Part shown: piece after piece, positions 9,559 through 18,078 of the stretch
Position numbering within the stretch: the stretch's first letter is position 1
Layout of the letters: each line of letters begins with the position of its first letter
Source: Pseudomonadota bacterium
GTDB taxonomy: Bacteria > UBA10199 > 2-02-FULL-44-16 > JBDRGF01
Direction of reading: 5' to 3'
DNA length: 18,862 nucleotides
Assembly (NCBI GenBank): GCA_043818055.1
Contig: JBDRGF010000022.1
Span: 1-18,862, forward strand
The notes under the pieces: model-generated
The model's database searches: none
What the model was told of the DNA's origin: nothing
The model's input: the letters and a program-made list of their open reading frames with translations, nothing else
Translations under genes and position numbers: made by a program

Positions 9559-12500
9559 ATGACGAAATTACCAAAAATAGGTACGGGTTTGCCACCACTT
9601 CTGAGTGGTCAAACCACTTTAGAGTTGGGGGATAAATCACTTTTATCTTCGCCACGAATTGCAACTCGTCAGCAGGGATTTTTTACTGGCGTAGCCCATC
9701 AAATTTTAAATGAAGTTGTTGAAGGGGGTGGGCAATCACTTCAACAAGACATGAACTTTAACTTTTTGAACTTTGATGCATCTTATTCTTTTGTCCAAGG
9801 TGATTTTCGAATAGATAGCGGTACAAATCTGTATAAAACTGAATTTCTTTCTTCTGAAGAGGTGAAATTTTTAGCAGCCAAAAGGTCACAGGTATTGAGT
9901 TGGACCCCTGACCAAAATTGTATCAAATGGGCAAAACCCTATGTCGAATTTTCCCGAAAATTCGCAAGTTCAAAAGGTCTTTTGCACCATGAGTATGGCA
10001 CGCGACAGGTTAACAAGCCCGGAAGCGGAGAGGAGCTTCACAGCCTGCGTCAAGTTATGCCTGGGGAGACATATCAATTTCGCGACCTTATTCACTCGAA
10101 GCTTAGCAGAGGAGAGCTTGTAGTCCGCGAGCGCATGCGAAATAATGGGAAGTATATCGTTATAGCGATCAGAGGCTTACATATGCATAGACTTCTTCGT
10201 GAAAAAAAAGAAACATTTTATAAATCCCTCTCGCTTCTGGCGCGATTGCATCTCAATCAGGGAAACCATGTGACGCTCATGATGGATGATTATTTCCTTC
10301 CATTTACAGATCGTGAAAATCTGGATTATCTGATCGTTGCTAAGGCGATGGAACTGCGTCATTTCAGGTTGTGGGGTACTGAAAAAATCAATCTCAATAG
10401 AACTGTCACCGAGTTGCGCAAACGCTCTGCAGAGGTGCACTCTCTTTTTCCTGACATTGATACATATGAGTGGAACCAGGATCAAAAACTGCAAAAATTG
10501 CTTGAATTGAAAAGGATACCTTGCAGCTCTGTAGTTTTAAATCCAGGTAAGCTAACCAAGGAATACCAGCAAAAAAAATATATTTCGGACGATCTTGAAT
10601 TTGAAGTGGATGATGAATATTATGATGTCACCTCTCATCGTGAATTATCCAGAGAATCTGAAGAACAGCGCAGACGTTTACAAAAAGTGAGAGGATGTGT
10701 CTTGATGCCGGAGGGAAAGGATGATGCTGATGCGCTGAATGAATATAAAAAACTTCTGTTTTTTGTGCGTGGAAAGAACGTCCCTACACCTGGGATAGAG
10801 AAAAGCGTCGAGAAAATCCATGATAAGCTAGTGCATCTTCCAACTCATCATTCGACATTAGCTTTACACATGAATCCAACAGCAAATGATTTTGATCTAA
10901 TGTTCAGACTAGAGTTCTTTAGATGTATTGTGAGTGGCAATCTTCTATTCATAAATGAATTGTGGGAGATAGTAAAACATTTTGAAGAGACTCATCCGGG
11001 CACAGCCTCATCATTTAGAGGAGAGATGCCGTACGATGATTCTATGGAACAAAAACTGGAAAAGTTTTTGGAAAAACAATTTTCAACTCCAAAAGATAAA
11101 CTAGGGCTTCTTTGTGAAATTATTGTGCATCCGGGAGTAGATTCTGCAGGCTCCCGTGCTGCATCGAAGGTTTTGTTTAAGAGAATCGAAGAATTGGGAG
11201 GGGAAGAAAAGGTAAAGACGGAATTTTATCGATTGATGGGAGAACCCAGCTTATCAGGTTCTTCGTGCGATTATGCAGATTTGATAGCAAAGAATCTGAA
11301 TATATTCTGGGAATTGACATTTTTATCCGGGCCCTCTCCCGATTTCACAAGACGCTTTCAGGAAATTGCTAAAGTTCTAGAAAATGCTTTAAGCGTATAT
11401 TTTTTATTGAATCAATACAGGTCGCCTTCATCTTTTAATGGTCTTATACCATATCTAGGCAAAAGAAGGGTGTGGGAATTTGAATATGATTACCAAAACA
11501 ATGTACAAACAAATTATACATTCATTGTAGATGATAATAATGATACAGTTGAGCTTTGGAATGTAGAAAAAAAACCGTGTAATGCAAATACAACATCTCA
11601 TCTCGAAAGCCATTATAAAGAGAAAAAGAAATCAAAATTTGAAGGTTTAGGCCTCTCGTGGCTTATGAAGCAGGAACAAGATTCAGATACAAAAGACAAA
11701 ATTCATAAGATGTTAGGAAATTCATCCGCCTGTACTGGCATTGGGGTATCCGGCGCCTGTCGCGAAGAGAAGGACGAAATCAATATGTCGCGCATTCTCA
11801 TGGAGGCCGACCGTGATCTCAGTCCTCCAAGTAACTATTTTCCGATAGAGATTTCTGGAAGATTCGACCCGGTGCGCGGCGGCTTTTCAAAACTTGATGG
11901 AGTGAGTCATGATCAGTTTCTTTCTGGTGGAAAGAATCAGGTAAAAATCAAAAGCACAAATCCAACACTCATATACGAGGCATTTGGAAGGCCTTATCTC
12001 ACACCATTTCAAGGAAAACTCTCCCGTTCGCATGAAAATGAATTCACATTCTCTTTGAAGCGATCTGAATCATCGATGATGCGGGATTTCTTAGATCTTC
12101 CCATCGGAGAGTTTCAGAGGATGGGTAGAAAAGGGCGAGTGGTCGGCGGACTCTATGCACAATTGACTCAAACCACTAGCATAGCAGAACTCAATATTAG
12201 ACCTGAAATGAGAGATGCTGTAACTCAATTATTATCATCGCTGAACCAAATGACCGTGCGTCAGGCCATTGATGCAATATCGGGATTTGTCGGGCAATAT
12301 ATCACATATGGTAAATACACTGACGATGAGATCGATGAATTCAGCCGTTTAAAAGAGCTGGCTCAACATGGAAAACTCAACTACGCAGATTATTTGAGCT
12401 TCATCCTGAATCATCAAAAGGGGAAATGCGTTGAGATAAGTGCGCTCACTGCCTTTCTCATGAGAACGGCCGGCATTCCAACAGCAATGATGAAGTGCCA

Positions 12501-13449
12501 CACCGCATCGAGCGGCAGGTATGTGACAAATATGGGGCACGCTGTCTCGCTCGTTCTTGTAAAAGGAAATGGTGAAAAGTTTGATGCCCTTCCCGTCGAG
12601 AACGCAGTCTCTGCCCCATCGCTGAGCGAAGATAAGCATATCCCTTCGGTTGAGAAAAAGAAGCAGGAGGAGAGGGAGAGGGAGCGTAAGGCCCATGAAG
12701 AAGAGAAGAGGCGCCTCGCAGAGGCTGAAAAAGCAGCTAAAGAAGCCAGGCTTTTACAACAGATGGAAGAGGCCAAAAAAAGGAGTTTCCTGGGACTGGC
12801 CGTTGATAAAATTAGAAAATTAACCGATAAAAAAAGTTCAAAAGAAAAAAATGCCAGAAAAGAGGAAGAACGAAGAATAAAAGCAACTGAGGAGGAAGCA
12901 AAAAAAGCGGCTGCACTCAGAGAAGAAGCTGAAAAAGAGGCAAAACGTTTGGAGCTGCTTAAACAGTTGGAGGCGGAAAGAGTAGATCAGGGTAAAGGGG
13001 AGGAAGAACCTGAGTCAGAAGAGAATAAGAGGATAAAAGCTATTGTTGCAGAATTGAAAGGGGAAAAAGTTGCAGAAGATGACGACTATCCTGTGATAGC
13101 TGTTGAACCTAAAGAAGCTCCTTCATTAAGGCAGCTTGAATGGACCGATCTCACAATGCAAGAACAGCATTTCTGCCTGAGGGCGAAGTGGCTCTTGAAT
13201 TATATGCTCGAATTTAAGGATAGGGATTTTACTGCAAATCCAAAAAATCTTACACCTCTTAATCCTAAAGAGCTCGAAAAAATATGGAGCAAGGATCAAC
13301 TGGCAAAATCTGAACCTTTGAATGTTCCATTTATAATCACACATGAAAACTATCCAATTATTAAAGAGTGGTTTGAGTTTGTGAGGAATAAGATTCCTAA
13401 TAAGATTTTACAATATATCGTCATGACAACACTTCGACAGGGGTTGTAA
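9559..13449 (+). CDS. Large multidomain protein: DUF58-like N-terminal region, transglutaminase-like domain, Glu/Lys/Ala-rich coiled coil
   Basis: GSGEELHSLRQVMPGE...SRGELVVRER resembles the DUF58 signature. KGKCVEISALTAFLMRTAGIP...GHAVSLV resembles a transglutaminase core (Cys957, His994). An EKA-rich helical stretch lies near aa 1035-1170. The ORF is uninterrupted for 1296 codons. Confidence 0.75.
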   Translation: MTKLPKIGTGLPPLLSGQTTLELGDKSLLSSPRIATRQQGFFTGVAHQILNEVVEGGGQSLQQDMNFNFLNFDASYSFVQGDFRIDSGTNLYKTEFLSSEEVKFLAAKRSQVLSWTPDQNCIKWAKPYVEFSRKFASSKGLLHHEYGTRQVNKPGSGEELHSLRQVMPGETYQFRDLIHSKLSRGELVVRERMRNNGKYIVIAIRGLHMHRLLREKKETFYKSLSLLARLHLNQGNHVTLMMDDYFLPFTDRENLDYLIVAKAMELRHFRLWGTEKINLNRTVTELRKRSAEVHSLFPDIDTYEWNQDQKLQKLLELKRIPCSSVVLNPGKLTKEYQQKKYISDDLEFEVDDEYYDVTSHRELSRESEEQRRRLQKVRGCVLMPEGKDDADALNEYKKLLFFVRGKNVPTPGIEKSVEKIHDKLVHLPTHHSTLALHMNPTANDFDLMFRLEFFRCIVSGNLLFINELWEIVKHFEETHPGTASSFRGEMPYDDSMEQKLEKFLEKQFSTPKDKLGLLCEIIVHPGVDSAGSRAASKVLFKRIEELGGEEKVKTEFYRLMGEPSLSGSSCDYADLIAKNLNIFWELTFLSGPSPDFTRRFQEIAKVLENALSVYFLLNQYRSPSSFNGLIPYLGKRRVWEFEYDYQNNVQTNYTFIVDDNNDTVELWNVEKKPCNANTTSHLESHYKEKKKSKFEGLGLSWLMKQEQDSDTKDKIHKMLGNSSACTGIGVSGACREEKDEINMSRILMEADRDLSPPSNYFPIEISGRFDPVRGGFSKLDGVSHDQFLSGGKNQVKIKSTNPTLIYEAFGRPYLTPFQGKLSRSHENEFTFSLKRSESSMMRDFLDLPIGEFQRMGRKGRVVGGLYAQLTQTTSIAELNIRPEMRDAVTQLLSSLNQMTVRQAIDAISGFVGQYITYGKYTDDEIDEFSRLKELAQHGKLNYADYLSFILNHQKGKCVEISALTAFLMRTAGIPTAMMKCHTASSGRYVTNMGHAVSLVLVKGNGEKFDALPVENAVSAPSLSEDKHIPSVEKKKQEERERERKAHEEEKRRLAEAEKAAKEARLLQQMEEAKKRSFLGLAVDKIRKLTDKKSSKEKNARKEEERRIKATEEEAKKAAALREEAEKEAKRLELLKQLEAERVDQGKGEEEPESEENKRIKAIVAELKGEKVAEDDDYPVIAVEPKEAPSLRQLEWTDLTMQEQHFCLRAKWLLNYMLEFKDRDFTANPKNLTPLNPKELEKIWSKDQLAKSEPLNVPFIITHENYPIIKEWFEFVRNKIPNKILQYIVMTTLRQGL

Positions 13450-14274: not shown

Positions 14275-14452
14275 GTCTTATCCCTTTTGATCTTTTCTTG
14301 GAAGTTTTGCATAATATTCTCTGCCTGATTTCTTATTTCGCATTGGTCATTTGTAACATAAAAAAATGGATTTGCCAGGATAAATTATGGATAGGGCAGC
14401 CGCAAAACAAAATATGAACTCTTGCAAATGTAAAAAATGATTTTAGTGTTGC

Positions 14453-14571
14453 TGCCTCCCCAACGGGATTGCAGAATTTGCTTAAGCAAATTCTTGGCGA
14501 ATGTTAAGGAAAATTACATTATAGTTGTTGCTTGTCTGCTAAAGCATACAAGCAACTGACATTTCGAACCC
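14453..14571 (-). repeat. Split duplicate of the tRNA-Glu 3' end (att-like remnant)
   Basis: 14453-14470 TGCCTCCCCAACGGGATT matches 14655-14672 at 17/18 positions. The continuation TTCGAACCC reappears at 14563-14571 after a ~92-nt palindrome-rich insert. Confidence 0.7.
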
Positions 14572-14613
14572 TGCTCACTTACGTTCGTTTGATTCGAATA
14601 CGAAGGAGAACTT

Positions 14614-14655
14614 ACAAAGCAAAAGGGCTGCCTTACGGCAACCCTTTTGCTTTGT
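14614..14655 (-). terminator. Hairpin/intrinsic terminator immediately 3' of tRNA-Glu
   Basis: Minus strand reads ACAAAGCAAAAGGGTTGCC-GTAA-GGCAGCCCTTTTGCTTTGT: a 19-bp stem with a GNRA loop and a U-rich 3' arm. Confidence 0.75.
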
Positions 14656-14656
14656 G

Positions 14657-14729
<73 letters not shown>

Positions 14730-14758
14730 GAAAAAGACAGCATTTACTGTCTTCCTTG

Positions 14759-14831
14759 TGAGCCGCCCGCGACTCGAACGCGGGACCCACGCCTTAAAAG
14801 GGCGTTGCTCTACCTACTGAGCTAGCGGCCC
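14759..14831 (-). tRNA. tRNA-Lys (TTT)
   Basis: Minus strand GGGCCGCTAGCTCAGTAGGTAGAGCAACGCCCTTTTAAGGCGTGGGTCCCGCGTTCGAGTCGCGGGCGGCTCA. Anticodon arm ACGCC-CT-TTT-AA-GGCGT. CCA is not encoded. Confidence 0.97.
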
Positions 14832-14883
14832 AACCTCTTAACTACTTGTTACTCGAACAAAATTTCAATAAACAAGTCGCAGC

Positions 14884-14978
14884 TTAATAGTTGCATAGCG
14901 TTGAAATGTCAAATTTTCTTTCAATCTCTTTTTTTAAAAATTTATTTAATTGACAAAGAGGGTGGTTTTGAGAAAAAT
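14884..14978. promoter_or_regulatory. Back-to-back putative promoters for the tRNA pair (-) and the histone gene (+)
   Basis: Minus strand: TTGACA (14912-14907), 17 nt, TATTAA. Plus strand: TTGACA (14950-14955), 17 nt, AAAAAT. An A/T tract separates them. Both -10 boxes are imperfect. Confidence 0.45.
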
Positions 14979-15016
14979 GCCGGAAGTTTTAGTTCTAACA
15001 ATCAAAAGGAGGGGAT

Positions 15017-15196
15017 ATGTCAAGTGAAACACTCGTAGTAGTATCAAAGGTGAAGGATTATGTGAAGGCGAAGGGTTGTCAGACATCTGAAACAGCAGTT
15101 GATTCTCTTTCCACTGCAGTTCGTGAACTCTTGGACAAGGCTATTAAGCGTGCCCAGGATAACGGCAGAGCGACCATCAAAGATCGCGACATCTAA
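15017..15196 (+). CDS. Bacterial histone (single histone-fold protein), 59 aa; not in the supplied ORF track
   Basis: Hand translation: MSSETLVVVSKVKDYVKAKGCQTSETAVDSLSTAVRELLDKAIKRAQDNGRATIKDRDI*. It has a strong SD (AAGGAGGGG), an N-terminal LVVxSKVK motif and a C-terminal RxTxxxxD histone motif, and is followed by hairpins. Confidence 0.92.
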   Translation: MSSETLVVVSKVKDYVKAKGCQTSETAVDSLSTAVRELLDKAIKRAQDNGRATIKDRDI

Positions 15197-15203
15197 TCAA
15201 GTT

Positions 15204-15228
15204 GTAGGGGCGGTTCGCGAACCGCCCT
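15204..15228. repeat. GTAG-type REP-like palindrome
   Basis: GTAG followed by the perfect palindrome GGGCGGTTCGCGAACCGCCC. Confidence 0.65.
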
Positions 15229-15245
15229 AATAAGTTGTGAGTTTA

Positions 15246-15274
15246 AAATAAGGGCGGATATTCCGCCCTTATTT
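15246..15274 (+). terminator. Intrinsic terminator after the histone gene (possibly bidirectional)
   Basis: AAATAAGGGCGGA-TAT-TCCGCCCTTATTT: a 13-bp perfect stem with A/T-rich flanks. Confidence 0.75.
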
Positions 15275-15311
15275 ATGTGCGCTTCACGAATGACGCTTCA
15301 CGGAGGTTAAT

Positions 15312-15872
15312 ATGGGAGTAAAATCTGACAAATGGATCAAAAGAATGGCCTCAGAGACAAAAATGATCGAGCCATTCGAACCGACGCAGGTGAGAAAGGG
15401 TATTTCTTTCGGCCTTTCTTCATACGGTTACGACTTCAGGATATCGGACGAGTTCAAGATCTTCAAACCATCTTCAGATATCAAAATCATCGACCCGAAG
15501 AAATTTGATGAGTCCCACTTTGAATCGATAAAGGCGGAGGAGTGCGTGATCCCGCCAGGGAGCTACGTGCTCACGAGGACAGTCGAGTATTTCAGAATTC
15601 CGCGTGACATCATAACGATCTGTTTTGGCAAATCGACATACGCCAGATCGGGCGTTCACATCAACGTCACGCCATTCGAGCCTGAGTGGGAGGGATACGC
15701 CACAATAGCCATCTCCAACATGACGAATCTTCCCGTCCGCATCTACGCAGGTGAAGGAATCGGCCAGCTGCTTTTCATCGAGGCCACCGAAGTCTGTGAA
15801 ACCTCATACGCTGACAAGAAGGGAAAATACCAGGCACAAAAAGCTATCACTATTGCAAAGGGAGAAGGATGA
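15312..15872 (+). CDS. dcd: dCTP deaminase
   Basis: Motifs [33 protein letters not shown] and [16 protein letters not shown] upstream. Confidence 0.96.
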
Positions 15873-15877
15873 TAGCT

Positions 15878-16067
15878 GAAATCCCAAATAACAAATCCCA
15901 AAACTCAAATAAGCTCCAAAAGGAAGTTCTGAATTTAATTGACGAGGCCGTCCAGTTAAAAAAGATATTTTCATCGATGTTAAAGTAAGCTGGAATAACA
16001 ATTTTTGATGTTTGTTTTTTGTTATTTATTTGTTATTTGTTATTTGTTTTTTGTTATTTGGAGTTTC
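15878..16067. repeat. ~190-bp element with inverted low-complexity heptamer arms (CAAATAA/TTATTTG)
   Basis: GAAATCCCAAATAACAAA (15878-15895) matches the reverse complement of TTTGTTATTTGGAGTTTC (16050-16067) at 16/18 positions. The right arm carries tandem TTATTTG-like units. Confidence 0.75.
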
Positions 16068-17054: not shown

Positions 17055-17262
17055 TTCCCTCTGAGCCCTTCACCCTTTGATGGGGGAAGGTGCCCTCAAT
17101 GACATTTTCCTCTGTGCCCTTCCCCCTTGACGGGGGAAGGTGCCCGTAGGGCGGAAGGGGGTGAGTGCTTTTGGGCGGAAGGGGGTGAGTGCTTTTGGGC
17201 GGAAGGGGGTGAGTGCTTTTGGGCAGAAGGGGGCGAGTGCTTTTGGGCGGATGGGGGTGAGT
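17055..17262 (+). repeat. Duplicated CCTTCCCCC/GGGGGAAGG hairpin followed by a 24-bp tandem repeat (~4.7 copies)
   Basis: ~40-bp imperfect direct repeat at 17055-17095 and 17106-17145, with a hairpin at 17118-17140. The unit GGGCGGAAGGGGGTGAGTGCTTTT starts at 17149, 17173, 17197, 17221 (2 changes) and 17245 (partial). Confidence 0.92.
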
Positions 17263-17274
17263 TTTTCACCATAT

Positions 17275-17405
17275 GGGTGTGTTGAAAAATACAAAAAATC
17301 TAAAAAGTGTCATTCTGAGCGTAGCGAAGAATCTTGTTATTTCGAATACTTAAGATCCTTCACTACGTTCAGGATGACAACAATAAGGTGTTTTTCAACA
17401 GACCC
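17275..17405. mobile_element. Miniature inverted-repeat element (MITE-like) with an ATAT target duplication and an inner palindromic element
   Basis: Ends GGGTGTGTTGAAAAATAC and GTGTTTTTCAACAGACCC are flanked by ATAT at 17271-17274 and 17406-17409. Inner inverted pair: TGTCATTCTGAGCGTAGCGAAGAATCTT (17308-17335) and AAGATCCTTCACTACGTTCAGGATGACA (17352-17379). Confidence 0.75.
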
Positions 17406-17481: not shown

Positions 17482-18078
17482 ATGACTATGAAATCCAAAA
17501 AGAAAAATACCTCAAAAACTTCTACTCGCAATTCACAGGAGAGGGTGATGACCGAGGGGAAGTTCATGTCGATATTTGAAGATATCAAAGACCTGATAAA
17601 ATCGACGGCCAAGGGAACTGAAAACGCTATCAGGGCAGACATGAAGAAGATGGAATCTTCGATCAGGAAAGAGCTTGGGAGTGATATTTCCACTTTGCAG
17701 TGCGCAGTCTCTGAACACTCGAAGATCATAAAGGATATGGATACCAGATTGACCAATGAAATTCAGGGTGTCCGGACGGAACTCAAGACCGAGATCCATG
17801 GTGTCAGGACCGAGCTGATAGACAGGATGGACAATGGTTTTGGCTCTCTCAAAACCGAGCTCAAGACCGAGATCCAGGGTGTCAGGACCGAGCTGATAGA
17901 CAGGATGGACAATGGTTTTGGCTCCCTCAGAACCGAACTCAAGACTGAGATCCAGGGTGTCAGGACAGAACTCAAAGCCGAAATTAGAGAAGTTGGCAAC
18001 AAGGTCGATAGACTGGAATCCCGTCTCGACGTCACGGAACCAAAGGTCGAAGTGCTCTTAAAAGAAAAAAGGGCATAA
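17482..18078 (+). CDS. Repetitive coiled-coil protein (apolipoprotein-like/hendecad repeats), function unknown
   Basis: 78-bp (26-aa) tandem unit TELKTEI[H/Q]GVRTELIDRMDNGFGSL[K/R] in register at 17782, 17860 and 17938. The start is uncertain: ATG 17548 behind AGGAGAGG is an alternative. Confidence 0.8.
   Translation: MTMKSKKKNTSKTSTRNSQERVMTEGKFMSIFEDIKDLIKSTAKGTENAIRADMKKMESSIRKELGSDISTLQCAVSEHSKIIKDMDTRLTNEIQGVRTELKTEIHGVRTELIDRMDNGFGSLKTELKTEIQGVRTELIDRMDNGFGSLRTELKTEIQGVRTELKAEIREVGNKVDRLESRLDVTEPKVEVLLKEKRA

Follow-up and report, generated by a model that had tools for sequence, protein, structure and literature searches.

The gene at 15017–15196 and its surroundings

The window analysed here is the whole of an 18,862-nucleotide contig (JBDRGF010000022.1) from a 2.93-Mb assembly that is 93.6% complete. 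On its forward strand, an open reading frame at 15017–15196 runs from an ATG start to a TAA stop and encodes a 59-residue protein, which we assign to the tailless alpha3 histones of face-to-face (FtF) type from R45, N49, R51, T53, D58 and the C-terminal I59. Against 15 equal-length orthologues from the same order the gene has a pN/pS of 0.13–0.27, an uncorrected value with synonymous sites close to saturation, and identity at codon positions 1, 2 and 3 among 16 histone genes is 0.84, 0.91 and 0.42; the reading frame is therefore a true protein-coding gene under purifying selection. Its product is present in the protein collection (P0001) together with 43 relatives at E ≤0.001, of which 37 are 75–88% identical. 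The preliminary description had called the gene unannotated, which is accurate for the track on which that description was based and not for the protein collection, where six of the 44 matches carry the source label 'histone H3/H4'. The closest titled relatives come from MAGs whose labels read Deltaproteobacteria or 'bacterium' or are inconsistent. One MAG with the label Anaerolineales has an orthologue of 81% identity on a 7-kb contig (L039), which is likely to reflect a misbinned contig or a mislabel.

The gene is preceded by a Shine-Dalgarno sequence (15005–15016, forward strand) that is complementary at 11 of 12 positions to the 3' end of the genome's own 16S rRNA. The resulting duplex, at −12.3 kcal/mol, is equalled or bettered by 4.5% of 1784 long open reading frames, each scored at its own best start, which bears out the strong Shine-Dalgarno signal first seen by eye; GGAGG or AGGAG lies upstream in 30 of 30 homologous loci. 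A likely sigma-70 promoter, TTGACA-17 nt-AAAAAT (10/12), is located at 14950–14978 on the same strand behind an A/T tract. A promoter scan by itself found two sites with 2.1 expected, which is no excess over chance, yet 27 of 30 homologous loci have a TTGAC no more than 150 nt upstream, as compared with 70 of 599 background windows, and this conservation sustains the candidate promoter that had been put forward.

Downstream of the gene, where a standard scan called no terminator, two hairpins are found (z = −4.8 for the region). The nearer one, at 15204–15231 (forward strand), is a GTAG-type palindrome of a family that we take to be REP-like. With several core variants it gives 244 relaxed-motif matches across the 2.93 Mb, so this copy is not gene-specific and can be ruled out as a dedicated terminator. 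Two Y1_Tnp matches, RAYT-like or IS200-like, lie on other contigs of the genome (G000:C141 and C61). The second element, at 15246–15276 (forward strand), consists of a GC stem (15252–15268) and a T-rich tail and is likely to be an intrinsic terminator: the hairpin has no second copy in the genome and satisfies a relaxed terminator test written for this analysis, which 26 of 30 homologous loci and 7 of 90 control windows also pass. The terminator claimed earlier is thus probably the second hairpin and not the nearest. With its own promoter, a strong Shine-Dalgarno sequence and a terminator, the gene is likely monocistronic and expressed from a separate, well-translated mRNA. In a groundwater metatranscriptome, a fraction of 0.35 of the sampled words of 14400–15900 is present, and because the matching part could derive from the tRNA genes, dcd or the repeat, we give this no weight as a sign of expression.

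The neighbours of the gene are conserved. On the reverse strand, divergent from it, lie genes for tRNA-Lys(TTT) (14758–14831) and tRNA-Glu(TTC) (14656–14729), and a dCTP deaminase gene, dcd, with its own Shine-Dalgarno sequence follows on the forward strand (15312–15872). Sixteen of 30 loci, and 14 of 17 within the order, have a tRNA-Lys gene within 1.5 kb of the histone gene, and dcd lies within the same distance in 20 of 30. In relatives, an opposite-strand reading frame often lies just downstream and is of monofunctional transglycosylase type (PF00912) in 6/6 tested (L002, L005, L007, L012, L018 and L024); a convergent PF00912 gene is absent downstream of the histone gene in the window. Elsewhere in the window there are a 442-residue DDE transposase-like reading frame under the Pfam cut-offs (492–1820), a 1296-residue reading frame (9559–13449) with a sub-threshold transglutaminase-like match at residues 948–1004, a long charged stretch near the C-terminus and otherwise no Pfam family, a 33-bp tandem repeat that gives repeating peptides in several frames (17070–17290), and a 198-residue coiled-coil reading frame with internal repeats (17482–18078).

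Fold and subfamily of the protein

The 59-residue protein stays below the cut-off of every Pfam and NCBIfam model. Of the histone-fold families that the preliminary description had named for checking, DUF1931 (E 0.015) and CBFD_NFYB_HMF (E 0.085) match weakly, and searches of the PDB favour HLp. With the single sequence, phmmer places HLp (9QT0) first at 2.2e-11 in an ungapped alignment, followed by HBb (~1e-7) and HTkC (2.9e-6); with a 42-sequence profile the values become 8.8e-21, 4e-14 and 1.2e-11, and HMfA appears at 0.017. An AlphaFold2 monomer model (pLDDT 83.4, pTM 0.60) has helices at residues 9–18 and 25–48 and one C-terminal turn, which together with loops L1 and L2 make up the three-helix histone fold. 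Foldseek gives this model TM-scores of 0.82–0.88 to HLp, HBb and HTkC, the solved alpha3 histones, and of ~0.6 to HMf-type histones, in agreement with the histone fold that had been expected of the predicted structure.

Alpha3 histones have been defined by an alpha3 helix of 3–4 residues and a shortened alpha2 (PMC11390915). Here, the chain stops one residue past D58 after a single C-terminal helical turn, and alpha2 (25–48) leaves a four-residue gap relative to HMfA, in keeping with the 4–5 residues by which such helices fall short of nucleosomal ones. The motifs LVVxSKVK and RxTxxxxD, the chain end one residue past the Asp and the missing alpha2 His are all as first described: the protein contains no His, and D48 aligns with the HMfA His. 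The nucleosomal HMf class is further set apart by the short alpha2 and alpha3, the TM-score of ~0.6 and a score of 20.3 bits with NF043032, for which the cut-off is 50. Pseudodimers of the DUF1931 kind, ZZ histones and phage histones do not fit a single 59-residue domain that scores 16 bits with PF09123 (cut-off 21.8). The modelled monomer fold is thus that of an alpha3 histone, and sequence, profile, fold and signature residues agree on the non-nucleosomal character proposed for it. Fold does not separate HLp from HBb, identity (45–46%) and TM-score (0.86–0.88) being alike for both.

The distinction between these two rests on particular residues. FtF histones form toroidal tetramers with a conserved Arg, a conserved Asn and RxTxxxxD, in which the Arg makes a salt bridge to the terminal carboxylate, and bacterial dimer histones lack the tetramer Arg and Asn and have RKT (PMC11390915). 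The HLp tetramer is held by R49, N53, R55 and F63 and reportedly wraps ~60 bp (PMC12701072). In HTkC, mutation of the matching Arg yields dimers (bioRxiv 10.64898/2025.12.06.692711); since HTkC itself carries Glu where the Asn would be, the key residue is the Arg. The protein of the window carries the FtF signature in register (R45, N49, R51, T53, D58 and I59), with R45, N49, R51, D58 and I59 at the sites of HLp R49/N53/R55/D62/F63. Across 42 aligned homologues, R45, N49, R51, T53 and D58 do not vary. Arg and Asn thus stand at the end of alpha2, no Lys follows the Arg of RxTxxxxD (R51-A-T53...D58-I59 stop), and the free carboxylate falls on the residue after the Asp. The face-to-face class that had been suggested by eye is supported by sequence, profile, fold and these residues.

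A different reading is that this alpha3 histone acts as an HBb-like dimer that bends ~30 bp, with no tetramer wrapping. It can draw on the equal identity and TM-score to HBb and HLp, the missing tail and the low net charge, and it has to account for R45 and N49, for Ala at position 52 where RKT has Lys, for the end of the chain at D+1 and for the absence of HBb's extra L1 residue. These marks also co-vary across the phylum. Of 48 loci with R45 and N49, 41 are without K52 and stop at D+1. The RKT Lys is present in 44 of 44 other loci (with a partial row removed), 40 of which have a longer chain. We therefore regard an HBb-like dimer as improbable. With the known FtF residues present, and R45 and N49 absent from HBb, a DNA-wrapping tetramer is the likely form of the protein.

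Of 11 HLp residues that contact DNA, six are identical here, one is changed from Arg to Lys and four differ (A13 to V9, G29 to E25, K54 to G50 and T56 to A52). The net charge is +2, within a range of 0 to +4 across the order, and that of the HLp core is ~+3 by count. E25 and the small net charge do not, in our view, prove that the protein has lost the ability to bind DNA, given that HMfA is likewise acidic at position 25 (Asp) and that the HLp core is itself near +3.

Distribution, inheritance and earlier records

Within the phylum, 72 of 93 genomes, and 53 of the 63 of high quality, have an alpha3 histone match at E ≤0.01. A contig scan with the single protein gave no relative among 599 pattern matches, and a scan with the alignment found 38 loci. 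Of 93 histone matches, 92 (in 71 genomes) could be classified, one partial match being left out: R45 and N49 are present in 48 loci and absent from 44, so that 28 genomes have the FtF type only, 23 the dimer/ZZ type only and 20 both. The two types are distributed by family. Of the 22 genomes in the order to which the window belongs, 18 have exactly one match, and the 17 loci classified there are all of the tailless FtF type; the other four genomes (78–96% complete) gave no histone match, profile search included.

A tree of 114 rows and 59 columns, from which 13 likely duplicates, three partial sequences, HLp, HBb and HTkC were left out, separates FtF from dimer/ZZ sequences on one branch with support of 98/97, a split that is partly circular in that the type labels were drawn from two of these columns. 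The protein of the window falls on the FtF side of this branch, which with the same qualification counts further against a dimer of the HBb kind. The 17 sequences of the order group together at 96/84. This clustering and the conserved neighbourhood fit vertical inheritance at a housekeeping site, and on the same grounds we reject a recent horizontal gain. They also bear on whether the reading frame could have arisen by chance or contamination, or could encode a histone-fold protein that plays no part on DNA. The shortness of the protein and its scores below the curated family cut-offs leave room for such a view, to which we nevertheless give hardly any credence in light of the purifying selection, the conserved synteny and expression signals, the grouping of the order in the tree and the conserved DNA-contact residues.

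Some FtF histones of the phylum (L075–L090 and L097) bear Lys-rich N-terminal tails with a net charge of +7 to +11, mainly in families that also have a dimer-type histone, in contrast to the FtF-only families (L001–L030), which are tailless at 0 to +4. Among canonical FtF copies, a tail is present in 13 of 16 from genomes with both types and in 1 of 25 from FtF-only genomes, counts in which kin are not independent. The tailed copies lie mostly within one tree clade, and the association between tail and second histone may reflect shared descent. One could picture this uncultured phylum as a two-histone system in which an FtF tetramer wraps DNA and a dimer bends it, with lineages keeping one or both; the order of the window would then have lost the dimer and would rely on a tailless, near-neutral FtF tetramer as its main chromatin protein, the Lys-rich tail being tied to the presence of a second histone. 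We consider this picture speculative and rather doubtful; if true, it would amount to a natural experiment on what leads bacterial histones to acquire tails. Other forms also occur. Seven loci (L089, L092, L122, L123, L128, L129 and L136) combine R45 and N49 with RKT and a C-terminal extension of 3–5 residues, intermediate between the FtF and dimer types. Tandem alpha3 doublets of ~119 residues (L056, L058, L059, L063, L068 and part of P0045–P0078) are found in Peribacteria-labelled MAGs and in a large number of 50%-cluster representatives, some of which have ZZ-like Cys motifs at the N-terminus; a fused doublet of this kind would be a pre-formed dimer.

Relatives of this protein are already on record. 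Table S1 of Hocher 2023 (PMC10627809) contains singlet histones of Deltaproteobacteria MAGs, with dimer-type paralogues, and among them PIU58409.1 (84% identical over 55 residues), OGQ22999.1 (43/59) and PJA20838.1 (42/59) are orthologues, the latter two counts (73% and 71%) having been made by eye. The novelty that the preliminary description had implied for this lineage does not hold, with orthologues at 71–84% identity already entered as histones. The rows concerned give these by sequence, with no subfamily, and we found no experiments on the three. A full-text literature search returned no paper that pairs UBA10199, the probable name of the phylum, with histones; the 10 supplements of PMC10627809 that were covered do not contain this name, and the three of PMC11390915 that were covered contain neither it nor 'Deltaproteobacteria'. 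Given the Table S1 rows and the known structures, the family, its mechanism, two solved FtF structures and the clade's orthologues are already in print. To this, the present analysis adds the placement of the clade in the FtF class, the observation that the two histone types sort at family level, and the hint of a link between tails and a second histone.

Proposed role and comparison with characterised histones

We propose, with good confidence, that the gene encodes a minimal tailless FtF histone, a predicted ring homotetramer that likely wraps ~50–60 bp of DNA without sequence specificity and acts beside HU/IHF. By analogy with HLp and HTkC, two chains would form a handshake dimer through their antiparallel alpha2 helices. 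Two such dimers, meeting face to face, would then close the ring, R45 of one binding the C-terminal carboxylate of I59 in the opposite dimer, N49 bonding to R51, and an R51–D58 pair clamping loop L2. S10, K11, K13, K17, T23, T53 and K55 would form a band that contacts the DNA backbone, and homology suggests that this non-specific binding is made through alpha1, L1 and L2. Because both dimer interfaces would be occupied, the ring is not expected to extend into a hypernucleosome.

The genome contains five HU/IHF genes, in contrast to the Leptospira case (PMC12701072). A second histone was found neither by two profile HMMs run over 50,704 six-frame pieces of the 93.6% complete assembly (next best E 0.25) nor by PF09123. 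The earlier suggestion of histone-based chromatin is accordingly overstated: the histone gene stands, and it coexists with five genes for HU/IHF proteins. It is also conceivable that the protein is an FtF tetramer and yet a minor or weak nucleoid component, with HU and IHF organising most of the DNA. Along with the five genes, this would accommodate the finding that position 25 is acidic in 17 of 17 loci of the order and position 50 is Gly in 15 of 17, where HLp has G29 and K54, as well as the lack of a match in four of 22 genomes. A minor protein would not be expected to show a Shine-Dalgarno sequence among the top 5%, a conserved promoter and terminator and 71–83% identity over the order's full-length matches, and published FtF histones are described as highly expressed in most, although not all, cases (PMC11390915; bioRxiv 10.64898/2025.12.06.692711). 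We judge a minor role unlikely and retain the wrapping tetramer as the preferred reading.

The gene leaves the known picture unchanged and is an ordinary addition to a known family. Histones are reported from <2% of bacterial genomes, and HLp is given as the sole functionally characterised bacterial FtF histone (PMC12701072; bioRxiv 10.64898/2025.12.06.692711). The protein described here is a clean, tailless FtF example of 59 residues that should be easy to express. The phylum, with at least 72 of 93 genomes bearing alpha3 histones and the subfamilies sorted by family, should be useful for asking how wrapping, bending and HU/IHF divide the work.

Among characterised histones, HLp of Leptospira perolatii (PDB 9QT0/9QT1/9QT2; PMC12701072) is the closest, with an ungapped alignment, 46% identity and the best E-value. 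The two proteins share the tetramer Arg and Asn, the Arg–Asp clamp, the end at D+1 and six of 11 DNA-contact residues, and in neither genome was a further histone found. They differ in that the N-terminus here is four residues shorter and has no basic tail, that E25, G50 and A52 replace HLp G29, K54 and T56, that the host has five HU/IHF genes, and that the gene neighbours tRNA-Lys/Glu and dcd, whereas the HLp gene neighbours smc and map. HTkC of Thermococcus kodakarensis (PDB 9F2C) is likewise tailless and alpha3-truncated and has the same alpha2 Arg (TM 0.82–0.84), whereas its L1 is two residues longer, Glu occupies the N49 position and Lys position 52, identity is ~40%, and it coexists with nucleosomal histones. 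HBb (Bd0055) of Bdellovibrio bacteriovorus (8CMP, 8FVX) has the same alpha3-truncated fold (TM 0.84–0.88), the LVVxSKVK start and RxTxxxxD. However, it carries Ser and Asp at positions 45 and 49, RKT, one extra residue in L1 and a longer chain, and it works as a DNA-bending dimer.
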